The position numbers and the translations under genes are program-made. Below the pieces are notes generated by a model. That model was not told the origin of the DNA. It saw nothing but the letters and a program-made list of their open reading frames with translations, and ran no database searches. A stretch of 59,628 nt of DNA, the filler included, from Basidiobolus ranarum (Eukaryota), in NCBI GenBank assembly GCA_040143965.1. It is 12 parts of 12 records of this genome, joined end to end, with 100 filler letters (N's around TTAATTAATTAA, not from the genome) between each part and the next. Parts side by side here need not be neighbours in the genome. Positions count along the whole stretch, not along the records: positions 19,952 to 24,833 come from JASJQH010001797.1; 11 more parts are not named here. One strand, written 5' to 3'. Positions within the stretch are counted from its first letter, which is position 1. Each line of letters begins with the position of its first letter. Shown here piece after piece: positions 11,974-59,628 of the stretch.

Positions 11974-12035
11974 TATTGAAATTATTTAGAAAGAAATATG
12001 AGTCAGGCCAGGATTTGAACCTGGGACCTCCTTCA
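11974..12035 (-). mobile_element. Truncated copy of the tRNA-carrying LTR-like element
   Basis: Minus strand GAAGGAGGTCCCAGGTTCAAATCCTGGCCTGACTCATATTTCTTTCTAAATAATTTCAATA matches 20611-20671; intact B box; cut by the Copia LTR at 12036. Confidence 0.75.
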
Positions 12036-14868
12036 TGTTAAAGTTTATTGTCTTTATCATATTTGTTCTCTCTATCTTCATACATCAAAATATTTCATAT
12101 ATCATATAGAAGTTAGTTAACATTATATAGTTGAATATCACTTAGCTAAAAATCACAACATATATTATATATATATGTGAATAATGAGAGAATTAGCAAT
12201 TCCATATTGGAAATTTCAAATTTGTTCAAATTGCCCCAAAAGTAGCTCATTTTACTCCCACAGATGTTCTGAACACACCCCCAGTGATAGTTTTCTGTAT
12301 TTCCACCAAAATGTATAAATGCTTTATTTCTGGTCAATAAATAATTTTCTCACAAAGCTATTCACAACTCCACTTGTCTAAAGTTCCTCCAAATGGCCCA
12401 TATCTTCCCAATAGGTTATGAGCCCCATGTTCCAACCTTTACAGAATGACAGAAACCACTACTACCACTTTTTTTAACTCAAGTGTTGAAAAGCTTGATG
12501 GAGAAAATTAAAATTTCTGGAAGTTCAAGATGCAAATCATGCTGGAAGACAGAGAGCTTTGGGATGTAGTCTCTGCAGATGAAAAGGAACCTTCTGACCC
12601 TTTTCTTTTCAAAGTCAACAAGAAAAGAGACAAGAAGGCCTTTAATGTCATTTGTCAAAGTTTGAAGGATTCACAACTTGTAAATATCCAATATACTAAG
12701 ACTTCCCATCAAGCTTGGACTATATTGGATGAGTGTTATGAAGCAAAGAGTCTTGCTAATAGACTCTTTCTCAGAAAAAGATTCTTCAATATAAAGATGG
12801 AAAAGTCCGAAAGCATGGTTACTCATATTGCAAATGTGAGATCTTTGGCAAAACAGCTGGAAAACATTGGTGTAACTTTACAGGAAGAAGATGTTATTTT
12901 GACTTGTCTAAGTAGTCTACCAGAACAGTATTTAAACTTGGTCACAGCTTTGGAAGCAAGATCTGGCAAGTTGTCCTTGGAGTTTGTGGTAGCAAGGCTA
13001 ATGCATCAACATCACAGAAGTAAGAATTTGGAAAAAGAATCTGAGGAAGTGGCTCTTTTTGGAGCTGAAAACCTTAGCTTTGGCAAGTACAAAGGTTACA
13101 AAAGGAGGAAACAAGGTTTATGCTATGGTTGTAACAAACCAGGACACCAGTTAAAAAATTGCAAATCAAGAAATTACAACAAAAGTGAGTAGTCAGAACA
13201 AGCAAATCAGGTTTCAGCCAAAGATGAAGTTTTATTCATTTCTGCCCTGTCAGTGACCTCTGAACAAGACTGTAGGTTGTGGAATTTTGACTCTGGAGCC
13301 TCTCAACATTTCTCTAATCAAAAAAACTGGTTTACAGCACTCAAAACTGACATAAACAAGAAGGTGTATGTGGGAGATGACAGCTACTAGAAGCTCTGGC
13401 AGTGGGAGAAATTGAAGTGGATCTTGGGGGCATCTCTGGGGACATATGTTTGACACTGAAAAACATGCTATATGTGCCTGGGATAGCAAAAAATTTGTTA
13501 TCAGTGAGTAAAGCAACATCTGAGGGATATTGCTTTAATTTTGATCAAAATGGCTGTACAATCAGGGATCAAAAAGGGAATTACGTAGCTTCTGGAGCTA
13601 AGCAAATTAACTTGTATAAACTTTGATATATTAGGCCAATATATCAACAAGTTAATACTGCCACAGCTGAAGAAATAGACTGGAAAATCTGGCATAGGAG
13701 ATTGGGTCATCTAGGAGCTGAAAATATGAAAAATTCAACCAAAAACAAGATGGTTTTGGGACTGAATTTTGTAATTCCACCAGATCTGGAGCTATGAGAA
13801 GGTTGCCTATATGGTAGGCAACAGAGACAGCTGTTTGAAGGCTCTGGAATGAGCAAAATTGATCAACAATTGGGCTTGATACACTCAAATCTGTGTGGCC
13901 CAATGCAGACAAAATCCTTAGGTGGAAAAAGGTATTTTATGACCTTTATTATTGATAAGACAAAATATACTTGGGTTTACTTTCTGGCCAGTAAGGATGA
14001 AGCCTTTGATACCTTGAAGAAGTTCAAAGCAATAGTGGAGACTCAAACAGGTCTAAAGATTAATATTAACTGTACTGATACTGAAGGGGAATATACCTCA
14101 AAACTCTTCTCTAACTTCTACTCAACACATGGGATAAAACAGCAGAATACAGTGCCATATCCTCCACAGCAGAATGGAGTAGCAGAATGTGCAAACGGAT
14201 CAATATTGGAAAGGCAAGTTCAATGCTTCATGATCAAGAGTTACCAAAACAGTTCTGGGCTGAATTGGTTGCAACTGCAGTATATATTAGGAAGGGATGT
14301 CCTTCTAGGTCTCTATTGGCTATGTCACCTTATCAAGATTGGTTCAAAAGTAAACTTGATGTGGCTAATCTCAGAGTTTTTGGAAGTACCACATATGCAA
14401 TGATTCCAGACCAGAAGAGATCAAAATTAGACCATAAAAGCCAGAAATGTCTTTTTTTGGGATGTTGTGATGGGACAAAAGGGTACAGACTGTATTATGC
14501 TGAAAATAAGAAGCTAATCAAGTCAAGGGCCATGGAATTTGCTGAAGAAGGAAAATTTTCAATCAAAACAATCCAGGATCAAGAAAAACAACCAAAAATT
14601 GATGAAAATTCTTCTTTTTCTCACCAGATCCTGATCAGTGAGAAAAATATTGAAAGTCTCTCACCTGCAGTGTCCTTAACCAAGCCTAAGGTGGATTCAT
14701 TGCCTAAATTGGTACCAGAAGTTGTAGTGCCAATTTCCCTTCTTAGGAGATCCAATTGGAGGAGATCTCCACCTGATTACTACTCTCACACTAGCCAAAA
14801 AGAGCCTTGTGCTAATTTAGCCTTTTCCAATGAACCCATATCAGTATAGGAGGCTATGGAGAGTCCCA
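12036..14868 (+). mobile_element. Ty1/Copia retrotransposon (family C1): 5' LTR, gag, protease, integrase; decayed, cut by contig end
   Basis: LTR 12036-12413; gag from 12446 with CYGCNKPGHQLKNC knuckle; protease WNFDSGAS; integrase WHRRLGH, LIHSNLCGPM, PQQNGVAE, SKLDHKSQKCLFLG; stops and frameshifts. Confidence 0.95.
12414..12425 (+). promoter_or_regulatory. Primer-binding site, half-tRNA-iMet (copia/Ty5) type
   Basis: GGTTATGAGCCC directly after the LTR; similar motif at 20787-20798(-) and 31556-31567(-). Confidence 0.85.
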
Positions 14869-15499
14869 NNNNNNNNNNNNNNNNNNNNNNNNNNNNNNNN
14901 NNNNNNNNNNNNTTAATTAATTAANNNNNNNNNNNNNNNNNNNNNNNNNNNNNNNNNNNNNNNNNNNNATTTGGATATTCCATACAAGTAATACATGTTA
15001 CTGATGTATTATTATGCTCTACAAATATTGTAAGTGCTTACACTGCTTTCTTTTTCTGATGACTGACTTTCTTTGGGTTCTTCAAAGTGAGGTAGAGCTT
15101 ACTGGCTCAGAATCACTAATGGTTGAAACAGAGTACGCATGACACGCTCAACAATTGTTCCATATGGTAAACCACTTCACTCAAATTAGTATCGATAGGG
15201 TAACAATCTAGTTATAATAACCAATTACTGATGAACTAAACTTGATTAACAACAAAAGGTACTTAAACACAATTAGCTCATTGATTTATTTGAGTAAGAT
15301 TAGAATGTAACAACCAATGCAACACCGCAGTACGTTGAATCTTCATTTGAAGAAACTACTGAATTAATGCTAATTCAATTTTGTTATGAGTAAAATTAAA
15401 TCAATTTCTTAATATGAACAAAAAGTCGATATTCACTTAAATTTCCTTTTTTTTGACATACACGATTTCTCGTGTCTTTATCACATTTGATATCTTCTT

Positions 15500-18400
15500 A
15501 TGTCGGATATTAATATTGATGCTGAGATTAAGGCTCAACAAGCCGAACGTGAGGCTCGATTAAGAGACCAACAACAATCCACCCATGTTTCTTTAGTTGG
15601 GGATATTGCATACGATACTGATTTATATGGGGGTTCCAATAAATTTGCTGGTTATGAAACTAGTCTTCCAGTGAATGATGTCGACGACGAAGAACAAGTA
15701 AGAAAACCTAAAAGTCTATTATCTTCATATACAGCTCCTAAAGAGATCTATGAAGAATTAGCTGGAGTTGGTGACGATGGAATGGATCCTTTCGAAAACC
15801 GTAATGGAAGTAAAAAAATCGTTGATCGTGAAGATGAATATCACGCTCGTAGATTTAATCGTGCCCTCTCTCCAGAGCGTGTAGATGCTTTTTCTAAAGA
15901 AGCTAATCAAAATTCCGAAGCTAGAACTTATGCTGAAGCTATGAAACAGGTAGAGCTTGAAAAAGAAGAACAAAGAGTTAGAAGAAAGATTGCTGAGAAA
16001 GCTAAAGAAGCTGAGCAAAACGGTCAAGAATTGGAGACACAACAACCCGCTAAAAGAAGACGATGGGATGTAGATGCTCCTGCAAATGATTCTCGTTCCG
16101 AATGGGAAAAACCGGAGGAGGAAGAGTCAACCGCACCCAAGCAGAGCAAGTGGGATGAAACTCCACGAGATACCCCACGTCGAAAGAACCGTTGGGATGA
16201 AACCCCAGTCAGTACTGCTTGGGATGCAACTCCACAGGGAAGTGTAACTGATACTCCAGGAAAGCGTAGATCACGCTGGGATGAAACTCCAGTCAACTCT
16301 AGTGCTTTTGGTGCCACTCCTGTAGGCAGTGTTGGCTTAATGACACCCACACCTAATCAACTGGCTCAACCCATGACTCCTGAAGCCATGAACGCGATGA
16401 GATGGGAAAGAGAGATCGATTCTAGGAACCGTCCATTATCTGATGAAGAGCTTGATGCTATGTTCCCTTCAGCTGGTTACAAGATTTTGGATCCACCACC
16501 AAGCTATATACCTATTAGAACTCCTGCACGTAAGTTAACAGCTACCCCCAGTCCAATGGTCGGGATGAGCGGATTTATGATGCAGGAAGAAGATAGAAAT
16601 CAGACCTATGATTTACCTACTGAAATCCCTGGAGTTGGTAATCTTCCGTTCTTTAAACAAGAAGATATGCAGCATTTCGGAAAGCTTCTCGATAATGTTG
16701 ACGAAAACCAACTATCTGTTGATGAGCTTAAAGAAAGAAAGATTATGCGTCTCTTATTGAAGATCAAAAATGGTACTCCACCAATGCGTAAAGCTGCTCT
16801 TCGCCAAATTACCGATAAAGCTCGTGAGTTTGGTGCTGGTCCACTTTTCAATCAAATCTTACCACTGCTCATGTCGCCTACACTTGAAGACCAAGAGCGT
16901 CATCTTTTAGTCAAAGTAATTGACCGTATTCTTTACAAATTGGACGATCTTGTTAGACCTTTTGTTCACAAAATCCTTGTCGTTATTGAACCTCTCTTGA
17001 TCGATGAAGATTACTACGCCAGAGTTGAAGGTAGAGAGATTATCAGTAATCTTAGTAAAGCCGCTGGTTTGGCAACCATGATTGCTACCATGAGACCGGA
17101 TATCGATCACGTTGATGAATATGTTCGTAATACTACAGCTCGTGCGTTTTCCGTTGTAGCTTCAGCACTTGGAATTCCATCCCTGTTGCCATTCTTGAAG
17201 GCTGTTTGTAAGTCGAAGAAATCTTGGCAAGCTCGTCACACTGGTATCAAAATCGTACAGCAGATATCTATTCTTTTGGGCTGTGCCATTCTTCCACATC
17301 TCAAAAGTCTAGTGGATATTATAGCACATGGACTTGAAGATGAGCAACAAAAGGTACGTACCATTGCCTCTTTAGCCATTGCTGCTCTGGCCGAATCGGC
17401 TGCTCCTTACGGTATCGAATCCTTTGATTCAGTGCTTAAGCCACTTTGGACTGGTATCCGTAAGCACAGAGGAAAGGGTCTGGCTGCATTCTTGAAAGCT
17501 ATTGGGTATATTATTCCATTGATGGATGCCGAATATGCCAATTACTATACAAAGGAAGTGATGATAATCTTAATTCGAGAGTTCCAATCTCCTGATGAAG
17601 AAATGAAAAAGATTGTTCTCAAGGTAATCAAACAATGTGCTTCTACAGACGGAGTGGAATCTCGATACATCAAGGAGGAGATTTTACCCGAATTCTTCAA
17701 AAACTTTTGGGTGAGAAGAATGGCTCTTGACAGACGTAACTACAAGCAGTTGGTAGAGACGACTGTTGAGCTAGCACAAAAAGTTGGCGTAACCGAAATC
17801 GTCGGTAGAATTGTCGAAGATCTGAAGGATGAGTCTGAACCCTACAGAAAGATGGTCATGGAGGCTATTGAGAAGGTTATTAGCGTGTTAGGTGCCGCGG
17901 ATATCGATACCCGCCTGGAAGAGATATTGATTGATGGTATTCTTTACGCTTTTCAAGAACAAACAGTGGAAGATGTTGTCATGTTGAATGGATTCGGTAC
18001 GGTAGTAAATGCTCTCGGCCTGCGTGTTCAACTCTATCTTCAACAAATCTGTTCCACCATTTTATGGCGTTTGAACAACAAATCGGCCAAAGTTAGACAA
18101 CAGGCTGCGGATTTGATCTCCCGTATAGCAATCGTTATGAAGACCTGTGGTGAAGAAAAACTGATGGGACAACTTGGCATTGTGCTGTACGAATACCTCG
18201 GTGAAGAGTACCCAGAGGTGCTTGGATCCATTCTGGGTGCTCTAAAGTCCATTGTAAATGTCATTGGTATGTCCAGTATGACACCGCCCATTAAGGATTT
18301 GCTTCCACGCCTCACTCCAATTTTACGAAACAGACATGAGAAAGTACAAGAGAATTGTATTGATCTTGTAGGTCGTATTGCCGATAGAGGAGCCGAGTTC

Positions 18401-19168
18401 GTTAGTGCTCGTGAATGGATGCGAATCTGTTTCGAATTGTTGGATTTACTTAAAGCACACAAAAAGGGAATTCGTAGAGCAGCTGTTAATACATTCGGAT
18501 ACATTGCCAAGGCCATTGGACCTCAGGATGTCTTGGCCACTTTGTTAAACAACTTGAAGGTTCAAGAACGTCAGAATCGTGTGTGTACAACAGTTGCGAT
18601 CGCCATTGTTTCTGAAACGTGCGCTCCGTTCACCGTACTTCCAGCTTTGATGAATGAATACCGAGTTCCAGAATTGAATGTTCAGAATGGTGTTCTCAAG
18701 TCATTGTCTTGGGTATTTGAATATATTGGTGAGATGGGTAAAGATTATATCTACGCTGTCACACCACTTCTTGAAGATGCTTTGATGGATCGAGATCTTG
18801 TTCATCGTCAAACCGCATGTACTACCGTTAAACATATGGCTTTGGGATCGTACGGTTTAGGGTGTGAAGATGCACTTCTTCATTTGTTAAATTATGTATG
18901 GCCCAACATCTTCGAGACCTCACCCCATGTTATCAATGCAGTCATGGAAGCCATAGATGGATTAAGGGTAGCGTTAGGACCAGCGATTATTCTTCAATAT
19001 GTATTACAAGGACTCTTCCATCCAGCCAGAAAGGTACGTGAGATCTATTGGAAGATATATAACAATGCATATATTGGGGCACAAGACGCACTCGTACCAT
19101 TCTATCCTACAATCGAAGATGATGAAAGAAATCATTATCAACGACATGAAATGGATTATTTCTTGTAA
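15500..19168 (+). CDS. SF3B1: Splicing factor 3B subunit 1 (U2 snRNP, Hsh155)
   Basis: Intact 1222-aa ORF with RWDETP ULM repeats and HEAT-repeat region ([49 protein letters not shown]). Confidence 0.99.
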
Positions 19169-19676: not shown

Positions 19677-19751
19677 ACTTCTGTGGTGCAATGGAAAGCG
19701 CGTTCTAATAACTGTCGAACCGCTATGGGTTCGAATCCCATCCCAGAAGCA
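19677..19751 (+). pseudogene. tRNA pseudogene with Arg/Asn-like body
   Basis: CTTCTG/CAGAAG acceptor, GTGC/GCGC D stem, ATGGG-TTCGAAT-CCCAT T arm; aberrant anticodon loop, 2-nt insertion, no T-run terminator. Confidence 0.55.
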
Positions 19752-19951
19752 AAAAAGAGAAATTTAAATGATGACGTTACAATAGAAACAGTTATCCCTG
19801 TCCGAAAAGACTATGTGGATAAAAATTGTAGACTGAAATTTCTTTTTTTTTNNNNNNNNNNNNNNNNNNNNNNNNNNNNNNNNNNNNNNNNNNNNTTAAT
19901 TAATTAANNNNNNNNNNNNNNNNNNNNNNNNNNNNNNNNNNNNNNNNNNNN

Positions 19952-20135: not shown

Positions 20136-20388
20136 TAACCATGCTTTCAGACTTTTCCATCTTAATATTGGGGAATTTTTGTCTGAGAAAGAGTCTATTA
20201 GCAAGACTCTTTGCTTCATAACACTCTTCCAATATAGTCCAAGCTTGTTGGGAAGTCTTTGCATATTGAATATTCACAAGTTGTGAATCCTTCAAACTTT
20301 GACAAATGATATTAAAGGCCTTCTTGTCTCTTTTCTTGAAAGCTTCCAATAAAGAAGGGTCAGAAGGTTCCTTTTCATCTCTGGAGAC

Positions 20389-20671
20389 TGTTGAAAGTCT
20401 GGTGACTTGTGATACAAGCAGTAATTCCCAATAGAGGAAAAAATGGAGTATGGTGACTGCATCTGCACACAAAGTCTCAGGCCAATCAGTTGCTTGTATA
20501 GCTCATATGCCAAAGTACCATATATTGACAGACTAGGTTAAGGTTCCCTAGCAATATAGGCATAGTATACAAGGACTGGTAGCTCTGTTGTTAGAGCACC
20601 TTGCTAGAGCAAAGGAGGTCCCAGGCTCAAATCCTGGCCAGACCGATATTTCTCCCTAAATAATTTCATTA
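20389..20671 (+). mobile_element. 283-bp solo-LTR-like insertion carrying a tRNA-like gene
   Basis: TGTTGAAA...TTTCATTA termini; perfect GAGAC TSD (20384-20388, 20672-20676); empty site seen in the paralogous gag near 12570. Confidence 0.88.
20573..20645 (+). tRNA. 73-nt tRNA-like unit inside the LTR (nominal anticodon AGA, short variable arm)
   Basis: GGACTGG TA GCTC TGTTGTTA GAGC A CCTTG CTAGAGC AAAGG AGGTC CCAGG CTCAAAT CCTGG CCAGACC G folds as a cloverleaf with A- and B-box-like motifs; a few mismatches. Confidence 0.65.
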
Positions 20672-21039
20672 GAGACTACATCCCAAAGCTCCCTGTCTTC
20701 CAGCATGATTTGATCTTGAATTTTGACACTTGCATTAATAGAAGTGGTAGTAGTGGTTTCTGTCATACTGTAAAGGTTAGAAAGTGGTGCTCATAACCTA
20801 TTGGGAAAATATGGGCTGTATGGAGGAACTTTAGGAAAGTGGAGTTGTGAATAGCATTGTGAGATAATTATTTATTGTCCAGAAATAAAGCATTTATACA
20901 ATTTGGTGTAAATACAGAAAACTAGCACTGGGATTGTGTTCAGAACATCTGTGGGAGTAAAATGAGCTATTTTTGGGGCAATTTGAACAAGTGTGAAATT
21001 TCCAATATGGAATTGCTAATTCTCACATTATGCACATAT

Positions 21040-21200
21040 CCCTATGAAAAACATGGGAATGAATACCAGAGGAAAACCAGAGAAAACACAAATATAGTGG
21101 TAGGAATGCCATGAGAAAGTTGTTGCAATACCAGCATAATACCATTTTAAAACAGTCAGAAAATAGTATGAAATGCAAATTTCAATTTTTTTTGTTAGGG
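21040..21200. mobile_element. 161-bp CMC/CACTA-type MITE
   Basis: CCCTA...TAGGG ends, inserted in an (AT)n tract; absent from the paralogous LTR at 12146-12200. Confidence 0.8.
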
Positions 21201-21341
21201 ATATATATATAATATATGTTCCAATTTTCAGTTAAGTGATATTGGACTAAGTAATGTTCACTAACTTAAATTTGATATATGAAACAGTTAGGTTTATAAA
21301 GATAGAGATAACAAATTTGATAAAGACAATAAACTTCAACA

Positions 21342-21550: not shown

Positions 21551-21940
21551 TGTTGAAATTAGCTTTGCTTAAACACCTATATAGTGATATATGTTGAAAT
21601 TAGCTTTGCCTAAATACCTATATAGTCATATATAGCCTAGTACTTGGTTATCTTGTAATTTACTAAGATAGTATTTATTATTCTCAATTGGAATTTACTT
21701 AGAATGTTTTTACCAACTTAGAAGTTCTCAGATATATAGATCTTTTCAAACTTATGCTAGAAGCCCCAAACTTTGCACACATGTTCCTGGGACCTTCCTT
21801 AATACATTCTACATGTTTGTTTTTTTACATCCTGACAAAACTATATATGTCAACTTTGTACTCAATAAATCAACAAGTGAAAACCACCAATTCCTCTAAT
21901 TCTCCAAACCACTTCCAACAGGCTCCCAAATACTTTAACA
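21551..21940 (+). mobile_element. Family C3 solo LTR (21592-21940) nested in the start of another C3 LTR
   Basis: TG...CA ends, ATATA TSD; the outer copy is preceded by PPT-like GGGAGAG. Confidence 0.9.
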
Positions 21941-25438: not shown

Positions 25439-26801
25439 TCACGCATTGCTTACTTTTTCAACTGTACTGAAAAGTAGAGTCAGCATTTGTTCTTCGCGAT
25501 TCTCATAAAATCTTTGTATTTTACGGAAATATTCCTCGATGAATTCTTCCAATTGAGTTTCATTGCTAAAAACCTGACGTTTAGCTAAGCCTGCTTGAAT
25601 TTGAGGCCAAGTAAAAGCTTTCATTTGCGCGATACCATAATCTCCATGGCCAAACAAACATGGATGCGAATTAGGGGTACACTTAACCAGATTGAGAGTA
25701 GGCACCTCCTGAATGGCTCGCTCAATGTCTTCCCGTATTCGAGGGAACAGTGGGATGGTGGCGGCATCTAAAAGCATAATATCAATATTATTTTCCTCGA
25801 TATGCTGCTGCCATATGTCGTCGAAGTCTTTCAGACCCTCATATTGGCTAAGTACCGAGAACATCATGTGACCGCCATCTCGAAGTTCAATTGAGCGGCT
25901 CTGAAGGAAAGCAACTAACTCTCGATGGCTTTCTTCTTGAAGTTGATGCTTCTCTTGGGCAGTAATTTTGGAAGAAGCAAATGTTAGCGGACGATAGAGA
26001 GGTATGGGAATATCTTGAAGCCAGTGAGCGCAATTAAAAGCCACACCGATGTCCAAGTGGTTACTAGGAAGACACTGGCTGTAAAATGATTTTGCACTAA
26101 TCATAGTCAAGATTTGGTTATCGGGGTTGACCTTAAGAAGGGAATGATATTGATAAGTCAAATTCGGGTCATGTAGGCATTTGAAAACCTCTTCAAAGTC
26201 GTTGGAGGGAAGGTCATTGTGGTAGACCTGGACAGAGAGGGGAGTGGTATCTTTTCTCGTAGCCTGGATAGAATCCAGGATGGCATTGATGATAGTCATC
26301 GAGTTACCTCCATGACTACACCCAAAATCGCCAATTGTAAATGTAGTTGAAATATTCGGTGCCTGGCGTTGCACTACACGGGAAAAAGAGTTAGCAAAGT
26401 GGACTCGCAAGCTTGACTTTGTTTGGAAGATACGGGAAGAAATGTTAGCGAGCAATACTCTGACATGAAGGTGGCTGAATCATTTGAATTTAGTCTATAT
26501 AACTGGAACAAATGTGTACCTAATGCTTTCAATTCGTCGATTCCTAATTGATTAAATTGTGCTTGAATTTTGGAATTCGAATTATAGTCCTTCATCGGCT
26601 GAGTGGTACAATTTTGCGATTCTACAGAATTCCAAAAGGTAAGGATAAGTAACTATAAAAGAACTTGGGGATGATAGCTCTTGGTATGCCCATCAGCCCT
26701 TACCACGAGCTGACCTAAAGTTCTTGTTGAGTTTGTTAGATTTGCAAATTACCTTTTGGAAGAGTGTGGCGTACGCATGGTGACTGGATGTTTTGGCTCA
26801 T
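25439..26801 (-). CDS. SAM-dependent carboxyl methyltransferase (SABATH/Methyltransf_7)
   Basis: Predicted exons 26801-26753, 26621-26520, 26373-25439 join in frame; motifs YNSNSKIQ, IGDFGCSHGGNS, VYHNDLPSNDF, SFYSQCLP, CAHWL. First exon less certain. Confidence 0.88.
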
Positions 26802-27765: not shown

Positions 27766-28051
27766 TGTTTAAGCTTCGATCTGTAGCAGATGATAAATGA
27801 TAGCCCTTAGTTTAATTTCTCTAGAAGCAGAGTTATCTCGATTTCTATGTTAGTACGATGATCAAATACAGGATGTTCCGGTTTAACATCACTGTGATAG
27901 CTACTAAGAAGTTGTTCGATCAATAAACAATTAAACTTGATGCTGATTTATGGGGCAGGTAGTTGAAATCTAATAGTACCTGTCTAGAGTTGTGAAGGTC
28001 CCAGATTCAGCTCCTGGTCAGGCCAACATATCTTCACAATTACTTTCAGCA
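27766..28051 (+). mobile_element. Diverged relative of the tRNA-carrying LTR
   Basis: tRNA-like 27953-28025 is also 73 nt with CTAGAG at positions 32-37 and AGGTCCCAGATTCAGCTCCTGG; ends TTTCAGCA 26 nt downstream; left end tentative, no TSD seen. Confidence 0.5.
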
Positions 28052-28537: not shown

Positions 28538-28862
28538 TGTTGGAATTAGCATCGCCTAAACACCTATATATAGTCATAAATAGCTTAGTATTTAGTTGTC
28601 ATATATTGACCTAAGATTTACCCATTATTCTCATGAGGAATTTACTTAGAATATTTTTACCAACTTAGAAGTTCTCAGATATATAGATTTTTTAAAGAAG
28701 CCCCAAACTTTGCACAGATGTTCCTGGGACCTTCCTTAACACATTCTACACGTTAGTTTATTTACATCTTGACAAAACTATAAATGTCAACTCAATAAGT
28801 GAAAACCGCCAATTCCTCTGATTCTCCAAACCACTTCCAACAGGCTCCCAAACACTTTAATA
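28538..28862 (+). mobile_element. Family C3 solo LTR
   Basis: Near-full-length match to 43574-43921. Confidence 0.85.
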
Positions 28863-29194
28863 ATTCTACCTTTCCTCATTATATCGAATCTGTGAAGTTA
28901 TCACAAATATTTCTTTAATTAAACCCTATTTTAATGGCTATAGTTGCAATAACTAGTGAAACAGAACAAGTCTTCTACTGCGGCATTATGGAACACAGTG
29001 ATATTTGCTTAAACATGACGTAGAGGAAAAGAATTTTGGTTCAAGAAGTTACTTCTGGAGTTATGCTGAGCATATAAATTGATGATAAACATCAAGGTCC
29101 TTATTTCTGTGTAGAATGTAATAGGATGAGTATATGGAAACTTACTATATTACTATATTAAAACTCTGTTGGCATGTTAGACACACATTTATCA

Positions 29195-43573: not shown

Positions 43574-43921
43574 TGTTGAAATTAGAATTGCCTGAACACC
43601 TATATAGTCATATATAGCTTAGTACTTAGTTATCTTATAATTCATTAAGATATTATCAATTATTCTCAATCGGAATTTGCTTTGAATATTTTTACCAACT
43701 TAGAAGTTCTCAGATATTTAGATTTTTCAAGCTTGTGCTAGAAGCCCCAAACTTTGCACACATGTTCCTGGGACCTTCCTTAACACATTCTACACATTAG
43801 TTTGTTTACATCTTGACAAAACTATAAATGTCAACTTTCTACTCAATAAATCAATAAGTGAAAACCACCAATTCCTGTAATTCTCCAGACCACTTCCAAC
43901 AGGCTCCCAAATACTTTAACA
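43574..43921 (+). mobile_element. Family C3 solo LTR, 348 bp
   Basis: TGTTGAAA...TTTAACA with perfect ATGAC TSD. Confidence 0.95.
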
Positions 43922-46472: not shown

Positions 46473-46821
46473 TGTTGAAATTAGCATTGCCTAAACACCT
46501 ATATAGTCATATGTAGCTTAGTACTTAGTTATCTTATATTTCACTGAGATATTACCTAATATTCTCAATTGGAATTTACTCAGAATATCTTTTACCAACT
46601 TAGAAGTTCTCAGATATACAGATTTTTCAAACTTTTGTTATAAGCACCAAAATTTGCACATGTGTTCCTGAGACCTTCTTAAACACATTCAACACCTTAG
46701 CTTACTTACATTTTGACAAAACTATAAATGTCAACTTTCTACTCAATAAAACAACAAGTGAAACCCACCAAATTCTCTAATTCTCCAAGCCACTTCCAAC
46801 AGGCTCCCAAGTACTTTAACA
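46473..46821 (+). mobile_element. Family C3 solo LTR
   Basis: TG...CA ends; flanks GTTTA/GTATA (one mismatch). Confidence 0.9.
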
Positions 46822-57961: not shown

Positions 57962-58310
57962 TGTTAAAGTATTTTAGGAGCCTGTTGGAAGTGGTTTGGA
58001 GAAGTAGCAAAATTGGTGGTTTTCACTTCTTAATTTATTGAGTAGAGAGTTGACATTTATAGTTTTGTCAAGATCTAAGCAAATGCACGTGTAGAATGCG
58101 TTAAGGAAAGTCCCAGGAACATATGTGCAAAGTTTGGGGCTCCTAGCTCAAGTTTGAAAAATCTATATATCCGAGAACTTCTGAGTTGGTAAAAATATTT
58201 TAAGTAAATTCCAATTGAGAATAATGGTTGATATCTTAATATTTAGTTATCCTATATTCCGCTAAGCTATATATGACTATATAAGTATTTAGGTTATGCT
58301 AATTTCAACA
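57962..58310 (-). mobile_element. Family C3 solo LTR
   Basis: Full-length reverse match to 43574-43921. Confidence 0.9.
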
Positions 58311-59124: not shown

Positions 59125-59628
59125 TATTGAGATTAGTATCACCTGAACACCTATATAGTCACTTATGGCTTAGTTTTTAGCTATCCTATATTTCACTAAG
59201 ATGTTACCCATTATTCTCCTGAAGAATTTGCTTGGAATATTGACACCAACTTGAGAGTTCTCAGGTATATAAGTGTTTTCAAACTTGCCCTAGATGTTGA
59301 AATTAGCATTGCCTAAACACCTATATAGTCATATATAGCTTAGTACTTGGTTATCTTATAATTTACTAATATATTATCCATTATTCTCATAAGGAATTTA
59401 CTTGGAATATTGACACCAACTTAGAAGTTCTCAGATATATAGATTTTTTTAACTTGAGCTAGAAGTCCCAAACTTTGCACACATGTTTCTGGGACCTTTC
59501 TTAACACATTCTATACATTAGTTTGTTTACATCTTGACAAAACTATAAATGTCAACTATCTACTCAATAAATCAATAAGTGAAAACCACCAATTCCTCTA
59601 ATTCTCCAAACCACTTCCAACAGGCTCC
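59125..59628 (+). mobile_element. C3 LTR (from 59295) nested in an older C3 LTR
   Basis: Outer copy breaks at ...AAACTTGCCCTAGA and a new TGTTGAAATTAGC begins. Confidence 0.9.

Follow-up and report, generated by a model that had tools for sequence, protein, structure and literature searches.

A probable solo LTR of a Copia-dependent element with a tRNA-derived module in an early-diverging fungus

In an early-diverging fungus, a 283-bp insert within the gag gene of a Copia element is probably the solo LTR of a Copia-dependent LTR retrotransposon that carries a tRNA-derived module in its 3′ third and is, by described anatomy, of the Helenus type. That the insert is an LTR with a tRNA-derived module can be said with good confidence, and there is about an even chance that it comes from a TRIM as Helenus is strictly defined. 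It lies in contig 5 of the window (the whole stretch of DNA that was analysed), which comprises 12 contigs of ~4.9 kb joined by N spacers, 59.6 kb in all. Only the host lineage is new here; the anatomy of the element is already published. The insertion locus and its empty counterpart comprise the following features.

20384..20388, plus strand: target-site duplication GAGAC, left copy; one copy only at the empty site 12573-12569
20389..20671, plus strand: insert of 283 bp, read as a solo LTR, TGTTGAAA...TTTCATTA, from the insertion relative to the paralogue and comparison of the termini
20672..20676, plus strand: target-site duplication GAGAC, right copy, read in contig 5
12569..12573, minus strand: empty site in the gag of the paralogous Copia (ORF 12512-13192), from the flank alignments and Pfam Retrotran_gag_2

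The left flank of the insert (20136-20389) matches 12821-12568 of a paralogous Copia copy in contig 3 at 90%, and the right flank (20671-21039) matches 12574-12173 of the same copy at 84%. In contig 3 these two matches adjoin at one GAGAC(T), which lies at 12573-12569 (minus strand). As the flank alignments meet at the empty site and the insert has GAGAC on either side, the 283 bp are a genuine insertion that duplicated 5 bp of its target. The next base (T) is common to both sides, so the boundary of the insert is ambiguous by 1 nt and the duplication is 5 or 6 bp long. The intact gag of the paralogue (12512-13192) is Pfam Retrotran_gag_2 (E 9e-42), which identifies the frame interrupted in contig 5 as Copia gag. 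The initial annotation had described a 283-bp insert with a perfect 5-bp GAGAC duplication that interrupts a gag gene, and had placed the empty site near 12570; the flank alignments and the two flanking copies of GAGAC bear out the former, and the single GAGAC in the contig 3 paralogue bears out the latter.

The module and the parts of the insert around it are arranged as follows.

20389..20572, plus strand: left 184 bp of the insert, a U3-like part; unique in the window and without similarity upstream of copy 3
20573..20645, plus strand: tRNA-like module; 47.2 bits with Rfam tRNA, cloverleaf as minimum-free-energy fold, ARAGORN Ser(aga) at a relaxed threshold only
From 20580, plus strand: box A region of the module, TAGCTC
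20606-20608, plus strand: anticodon position of the module, AGA
20624-20634, plus strand: box B-like sequence of the module, GGCTCAAATCC
20646..20671, plus strand: tail of 26 nt from the tRNA-like part to the terminus; conserved in all three copies in the alignment

The module scores 47.2 bits on Rfam RF00005 (gathering threshold 29) with E 5.4e-7 for the whole window, and it is the sole match to the Rfam tRNA model at E<=1 in the 59.6 kb. Its first base is number 185 of the 283-bp unit, its last base is followed by 26 nt up to the terminus, and its minimum-free-energy fold is a cloverleaf with six of the seven acceptor pairs. ARAGORN calls no tRNA in the insert at default settings and calls Ser(aga) at 20573-20645 when the threshold is set to 90%. 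The variable region is 5 nt long, which makes this a class I (short-variable-arm) cloverleaf with an AGA anticodon. Serine tRNAs carry a long extra arm. In the Rfam tRNA alignment the D loop has no GG, and C stands at T54, directly after the GG of box B. The box A of copy 1 contains TAGCT and its D loop lacks YGG. In the alignment of copies only copy 2 has the exact box B, GGTTC; copy 1 (GGCTC) and copy 3 (GATTC) each depart from it by one base. The sense strand of the insert has no run of four T; such a run first comes at 20721, downstream of the module. The Rfam scan gives only tRNA in the insert, with no 5S rRNA. Judged from its sequence, the tRNA-like part is a pseudo-tRNA and not a sound tRNA gene, and it is rather doubtful that its Pol III promoter is still active in copy 1. 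An earlier description of a 73-nt cloverleaf 26 nt from the terminus thus agrees with the Rfam score and the fold; calling it a complete tRNA-shaped gene is right as to the cloverleaf shape and wrong as to a sound gene, given the ARAGORN results.

A weaker tRNA-like sequence with a good box A and box B is present elsewhere in the window, at 19679-19750 (21.9 bits with the Rfam tRNA model, below gathering; ARAGORN Val(aac) at a relaxed threshold only). It is followed after 9 nt by a C/D-box snoRNA, snoR38 (46.5 bits, 19759-19842), and then by a run of ten T at the contig end. The two form an apparent Pol III tRNA-snoRNA dicistron at 19679-19851 on the plus strand, just 3′ of the SF3b1 ORF. Such dicistrons are known from plants; the host here is a fungus.

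Two further copies of the module are found in other contigs.

11974..12033, minus strand: copy 2, consisting of the T-arm, the 3′ acceptor strand and the tail; ends TTTCAATA, with box B GGTTC intact (BLAST, alignment, covariance model)
27953..28051, plus strand: copy 3, a decayed tRNA-like part with the 26-nt tail; ends TTTCAGCA (BLAST, covariance model)

Copy 2 (12033-11974, minus strand) is 88% identical to copy 1 over 60 nt. Its 5′ part has been removed by a Copia LTR that begins with TGTTAAAG at 12036, and a 5′ truncation of copy 2 is rejected because the copy is cut by the 5′ LTR end of this Copia. Copy 3 is identical to copy 1 at 65 of 99 positions over the whole module, the differences being 17 transitions and 17 transversions (70% over 74 nt by BLAST). 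It gives no Rfam tRNA match at E<=1 and has lost the cloverleaf. Homology to copy 1 sets in with the very first base of the tRNA-like part and extends to the terminal TTTCA. Comparison of the left 184 bp of the insert with the DNA upstream of copy 3 gives a local score of 28 (shuffles 23.6 ± 3.1, maximum 38) and a global score of 2.0 (shuffles 2.5 ± 1.5; maximum of 10 among 44 other contig windows), and BLAST finds no further match to the left 184 bp anywhere in the window. With no counterpart of the left 184 bp at copy 3, only the tRNA-like part and the 26-nt tail are shown to travel together. The left part is seen once, and copy 3 has unrelated sequence in its place, so that the copies do not establish a family of 283 bp. 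Copy 3 has a weak candidate LTR start, TGTTTAAG at 27766; with it the unit would measure 286-287 bp and have the same layout, but its duplication (GCATA/CCATA) matches at four of five positions only and the end must be shifted by one base.

A covariance model (R1) built from the three copies and run on the window without filters returns 18 matches at E<=10, of which only its three source copies are significant; the next best has E 0.27. Among the three copies in 59.6 kb none are paired, and no second LTR, PBS, PPT or internal region of the tRNA-bearing family is seen. The initial annotation had the tRNA travelling with the element. This holds for the tRNA-like part and the tail, common to all three copies, and fails for the left 184 bp, which copy 3 does not share. 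It had also named copies without the tRNA segment, or a tRNA with a duplication of its own, as findings that would speak against it; none of the three copies lacks the tRNA part, and there is no separate duplication around it. A degenerate pattern of the T arm and tail has no match in viral contigs and 42 loci in metagenome contigs. The latter are rejected as further copies: BLAST of the insert gives 10 short matches of 24-66 nt, all within the tRNA-like segment. They reach neither the left part nor the tail and are unrelated tRNA genes.

For comparison with the ends of the insert, the window offers two other LTR families.

12036..12413, plus strand: 5′ LTR of the host-type Copia, TGTTAAAG...CCCAATA, then PBS-like GGTTATGAGCCC
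12414-12425, plus strand: PBS-like GGTTATGAGCCC, directly after the host-type Copia LTR
21592..21940, minus strand: solo copy of the 350-bp LTR family, TGTTAAAG...AATTTCAACA, bounded by the perfect 5-bp duplication TATAT
43574-43921: second solo copy of the 350-bp LTR family, with a perfect 5-bp duplication GTCAT
46473-46821, 57962-58310, 28538-28864 and 59295-59628: further copies of the 350-bp LTR family

[quoted passage not shown] The host-type Copia LTR starts with TGTTAAAG in contig 3 and with TGTTGAAG at 21341, on the minus strand, in contig 5. This Copia family occupies 12036-14868 and 20136-21341. Its copy in contig 5 is nested: the tRNA-bearing LTR interrupts it, fragments of the 350-bp LTR cut it off at 20136, and its own LTR has ~160 bp extra (21039-21201). 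The 350-bp family has at least six copies in the 59.6 kb, with a perfect 5-bp duplication around two of six, a match at four of five positions around one and no clear duplication around three. Ends of this type thus go with 5-bp duplications in this genome. One copy sits within the 3′ end of another (21551-21591). A 9-nt resemblance, GGTCCCAGG, inside the 350-bp LTR gives no tRNA match.

The insert starts with TGTTGAAA, and its three copies end with AATTTCATTA, AATTTCAATA and ACTTTCAGCA. The 5′ end resembles the starts of both the host Copia LTR and the 350-bp LTR family, the solo copies of the latter family showing 5-bp duplications; this start fits an earlier reading of the ends as Copia-style. 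At the 3′ end, copies 1 and 2 have TA and copy 3 has CA. The canonical ending is CA, and the host Copia LTR end CCCAATA also has TA. The ends alone do not fix the orientation of the LTR. Inside the insert there is no LTR-like repeat, only one of 12 nt, and the tRNA-like part is single; the insert is therefore read as one LTR, and the alternative of an entire miniature element contained in the 283 bp is rejected. The tRNA-like part is also rejected as a copied primer of reverse transcription: it is without CCA, in the sense orientation and 26 nt inside the end. In Helenus, too, the tRNA-like parts are not complementary to the PBS of their elements, according to the sections of Kojima (2024, Biology 13:119, PMC10886601) drawn on here.

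Four other explanations of the insert bear weighing against a Helenus-type solo LTR. That the insert is a miniature DNA transposon, be it a Ginger-like element or some other MITE of the cut-and-paste type, with TGT... at its ends and a 5-bp duplication, is highly improbable; the initial annotation had raised this reading too. In its favour are the duplication and a short inverted similarity between the ends, at six of the first eight positions. This similarity stops after 8 nt and amounts to 12 of 40 positions overall, about chance, which argues against a MITE, and the same short ends are carried by LTRs that adjoin a PBS-like motif and gag. A tRNA-derived SINE or LINE-retroposed composite, with a ~99-bp unit as the real element and the 283-bp unit as a read-through or chimeric copy, would account for a copy 3 whose homology has nothing upstream of the first base of the tRNA-like part, for a 99-bp unit seen three times beside a left part seen once, and for the lack, as in SINEs, of a Pol III terminator inside. 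It is nevertheless very unlikely. The tRNA-like part of copy 1 lies in the 3′ third of a 283-bp unit that the duplication encloses as a whole, and a Pol III transcript from the tRNA-like part could not contain the left part. No duplication surrounds the 99-bp unit in copy 1 or copy 3, and what looks like a 5′ truncation of copy 2 is due to a Copia insertion. In place of an A-rich, T-rich or simple-repeat tail there are 26 nt of unique sequence, and the ends match LTR ends of this genome with the same 5-bp duplication. The position of the module in the 3′ third and the absence of a SINE-like head or tail layout agree with the first description of the insert as unlike a SINE.

That the module is a working tRNA gene merely riding on a repeat is barely credible. 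Its Rfam score of 47.2 bits and its acceptor pairing would suit such a gene, but the serine anticodon AGA goes with a 5-nt variable region, the D loop is without GG, T54 is C and ARAGORN rejects the module at default settings. Most such tRNAs in Helenus are described as non-functional in the part of Kojima's account consulted (PMC10886601). The insert could also be a solo LTR left by an LTR retrotransposon of full size, autonomous or else large and non-autonomous, with an LTR that happens to hold a tRNA- or SINE-derived piece; it would then not stem from a miniature TRIM and would fall outside Helenus in the strict sense. The length of 283 bp is ordinary for an LTR, the window contains no visible internal region of the tRNA-bearing family, and the same account has ‘not a few’ Repbase LTRs with tRNA-like stretches, only some of which are TRIMs (PMC10886601). 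This is unlikely, as the module is an entire cloverleaf, boxes included, and is better conserved between the diverged copies than any other part, as in Helenus; these are the only features here that tell the two readings apart.

For the Helenus-type solo LTR, we infer the LTR identity, the Copia partner and the Pol III role. The full element would have had two such LTRs around a short PBS-PPT core and would have been transcribed, perhaps by RNA polymerase III with boxes A and B of the tRNA-like part as promoter. Its RNA would be packaged and reverse transcribed by the proteins of an autonomous Copia, whose integrase would recognise the TGTTGAAA...TTTCA(A/T)(C/T)A ends and insert the element with a 5-bp target duplication, here GAGAC in the gag of another Copia. 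Recombination between the two LTRs would then leave a single one.

The host lineage is indicated by two genes for conserved proteins. An SKN1/KRE6 fragment in contig 9 has as its best named relatives Basidiobolus (68, 63 and 61% identity), then Umbelopsis and Zoopagomycota, with rust fungi at ~55%; contig 9 and contig 5 have in common the 350-bp LTR and the host Copia LTR. For an intronless SF3b1 in contig 4, identity to proteins of chytrids, Mucoromycota and Glomeromycota is 77-82%, and no Dikarya species is among the named entries of its best 120 matches. These similarities place the host among the early-diverging fungi, with no close named relative in the database searched, and not among the Helenus-bearing basidiomycetes of Kojima. 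The SF3b1 reading frame spans 1225 codons without introns (15491-19168). A SABATH-type SAM carboxyl methyltransferase domain (PF03492, E 2.9e-34) lies at 25439-26479 in an otherwise fungal window; the SABATH family is mostly of plants.

The preservation of the tRNA-like part and tail beside a differing 5′ part is a hint, taken from sequence comparison, of a modular LTR. We tentatively suggest, as a possibility short of the favoured view, that Helenus-type elements exist outside Dikarya and that a cassette of ~99 bp, made up of the tRNA-like Pol III module and a 26-nt integrase-end tail, is a selected, transferable unit on LTRs with unrelated 5′ parts (copy 1 versus copy 3). If so, LTR evolution would be modular, with the 5′ part swapped and the Pol III module and end kept, and fungal Helenus would either be much older than the ~130 million years proposed for Pucciniales or have been born independently. 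Confirmation across the genome would extend the range of Helenus/TRIMp3 from basidiomycetes to early-diverging fungi and would touch on the frequency with which LTR elements acquire Pol III promoters. No long-standing question is opened; the suggested mechanism has already been proposed in print. A tRNA match inside a fungal repeat can be a retroelement LTR and not a gene, and such matches inflate tRNA gene counts, as is documented for rusts in the part of Kojima's study drawn on here (PMC10886601).

The insert was initially annotated as an LTR-like fungal element with a tRNA-shaped Pol III-type module, an analogue of Cassandra, and the 5-bp duplication, the empty site, the LTR-like termini and the lack of a long inverted terminal repeat support this. 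The accompanying suggestion that the element might be undescribed fails: the anatomy matches the one that Kojima (2024), in the portion of the paper used here, names Helenus/TRIMp3, and it is thus not an undescribed kind (PMC10886601). Among the papers listed by a non-exhaustive search, none joins TRIM or tRNA-like LTR elements with early-diverging fungal taxa. Of later literature on Helenus, a meeting report, in the part available, does no more than cite Kojima.

The presumed Copia link through the tRNA-iMet anticodon loop has its counterpart here in the host-type Copia with PBS-like GGTTATGAGCCC, presumably a match to tRNA-iMet. The published features of Helenus given in what follows are those of the same portion of Kojima's paper (PMC10886601). 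Helenus elements are TRIMs with a tRNA-derived sequence in their LTRs, and with Ajax and Cassandra they make up TRIMp3; their proposed origin is a SINE (SINE2) landing in the LTR of a TRIM (PMC10886601). The insert resembles them in having its Rfam tRNA match within a duplication-bounded 283-bp unit. Fungal Helenus families make 5-bp duplications and many of their copies are solo LTRs (PMC10886601), as with the GAGAC found on both sides of the insert and once at the empty site. [quoted passage not shown] In rusts, many predicted non-functional tRNA-Ser-AGA, Thr-AGT and other genes are Helenus LTRs (PMC10886601), and the module here is called as Ser(aga) with a class I cloverleaf. Helenus motifs are box A TRGCY...YGG, with YGG in most, and box B GGTTC (PMC10886601), whereas the box A here has TAGCT without YGG and box B is exact in copy 2 only. 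The screening rule for Helenus is two LTRs, a short interior with PBS and PPT and a whole element of <1000 bp (PMC10886601); the three copies here, in 59.6 kb, show neither paired LTRs nor PBS or PPT. The fungal hosts listed are Pucciniales and two Agaricales in Table 1 and Amylostereum areolatum in the text, and the age proposed for the Helenus of Pucciniales is ~130 million years (PMC10886601). In contrast to these basidiomycetes, the host here is an early-diverging fungus, and the likeness to Helenus drawn here is one of published anatomy.

Other systems share part of this anatomy. Cassandra of land plants likewise has an LTR with a Pol III promoter that stems from the gene of a small RNA; as summarised in the same portion of Kojima's paper (PMC10886601), its 5S module has its own terminator, which gives an R region of 18 bp, whereas the module here is tRNA-like, the LTR has no run of four T and the host is a fungus. 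Ajax, a nemertean TRIM with a partial 5S promoter, follows the same TRIMp3 idea and also makes a 5-bp duplication, in what that portion says of it (PMC10886601), but it has a 5S fragment and an animal host where the insert has a tRNA-like part. A tRNA-derived SINE (SINE2) has in common with the insert a box A/box B module without an internal terminator. In the SINE, however, the tRNA part is a 5′ head followed by a LINE-type tail, whereas here it occupies the 3′ third of a unit bounded by a 5-bp duplication, with 26 nt between it and an LTR-type end.
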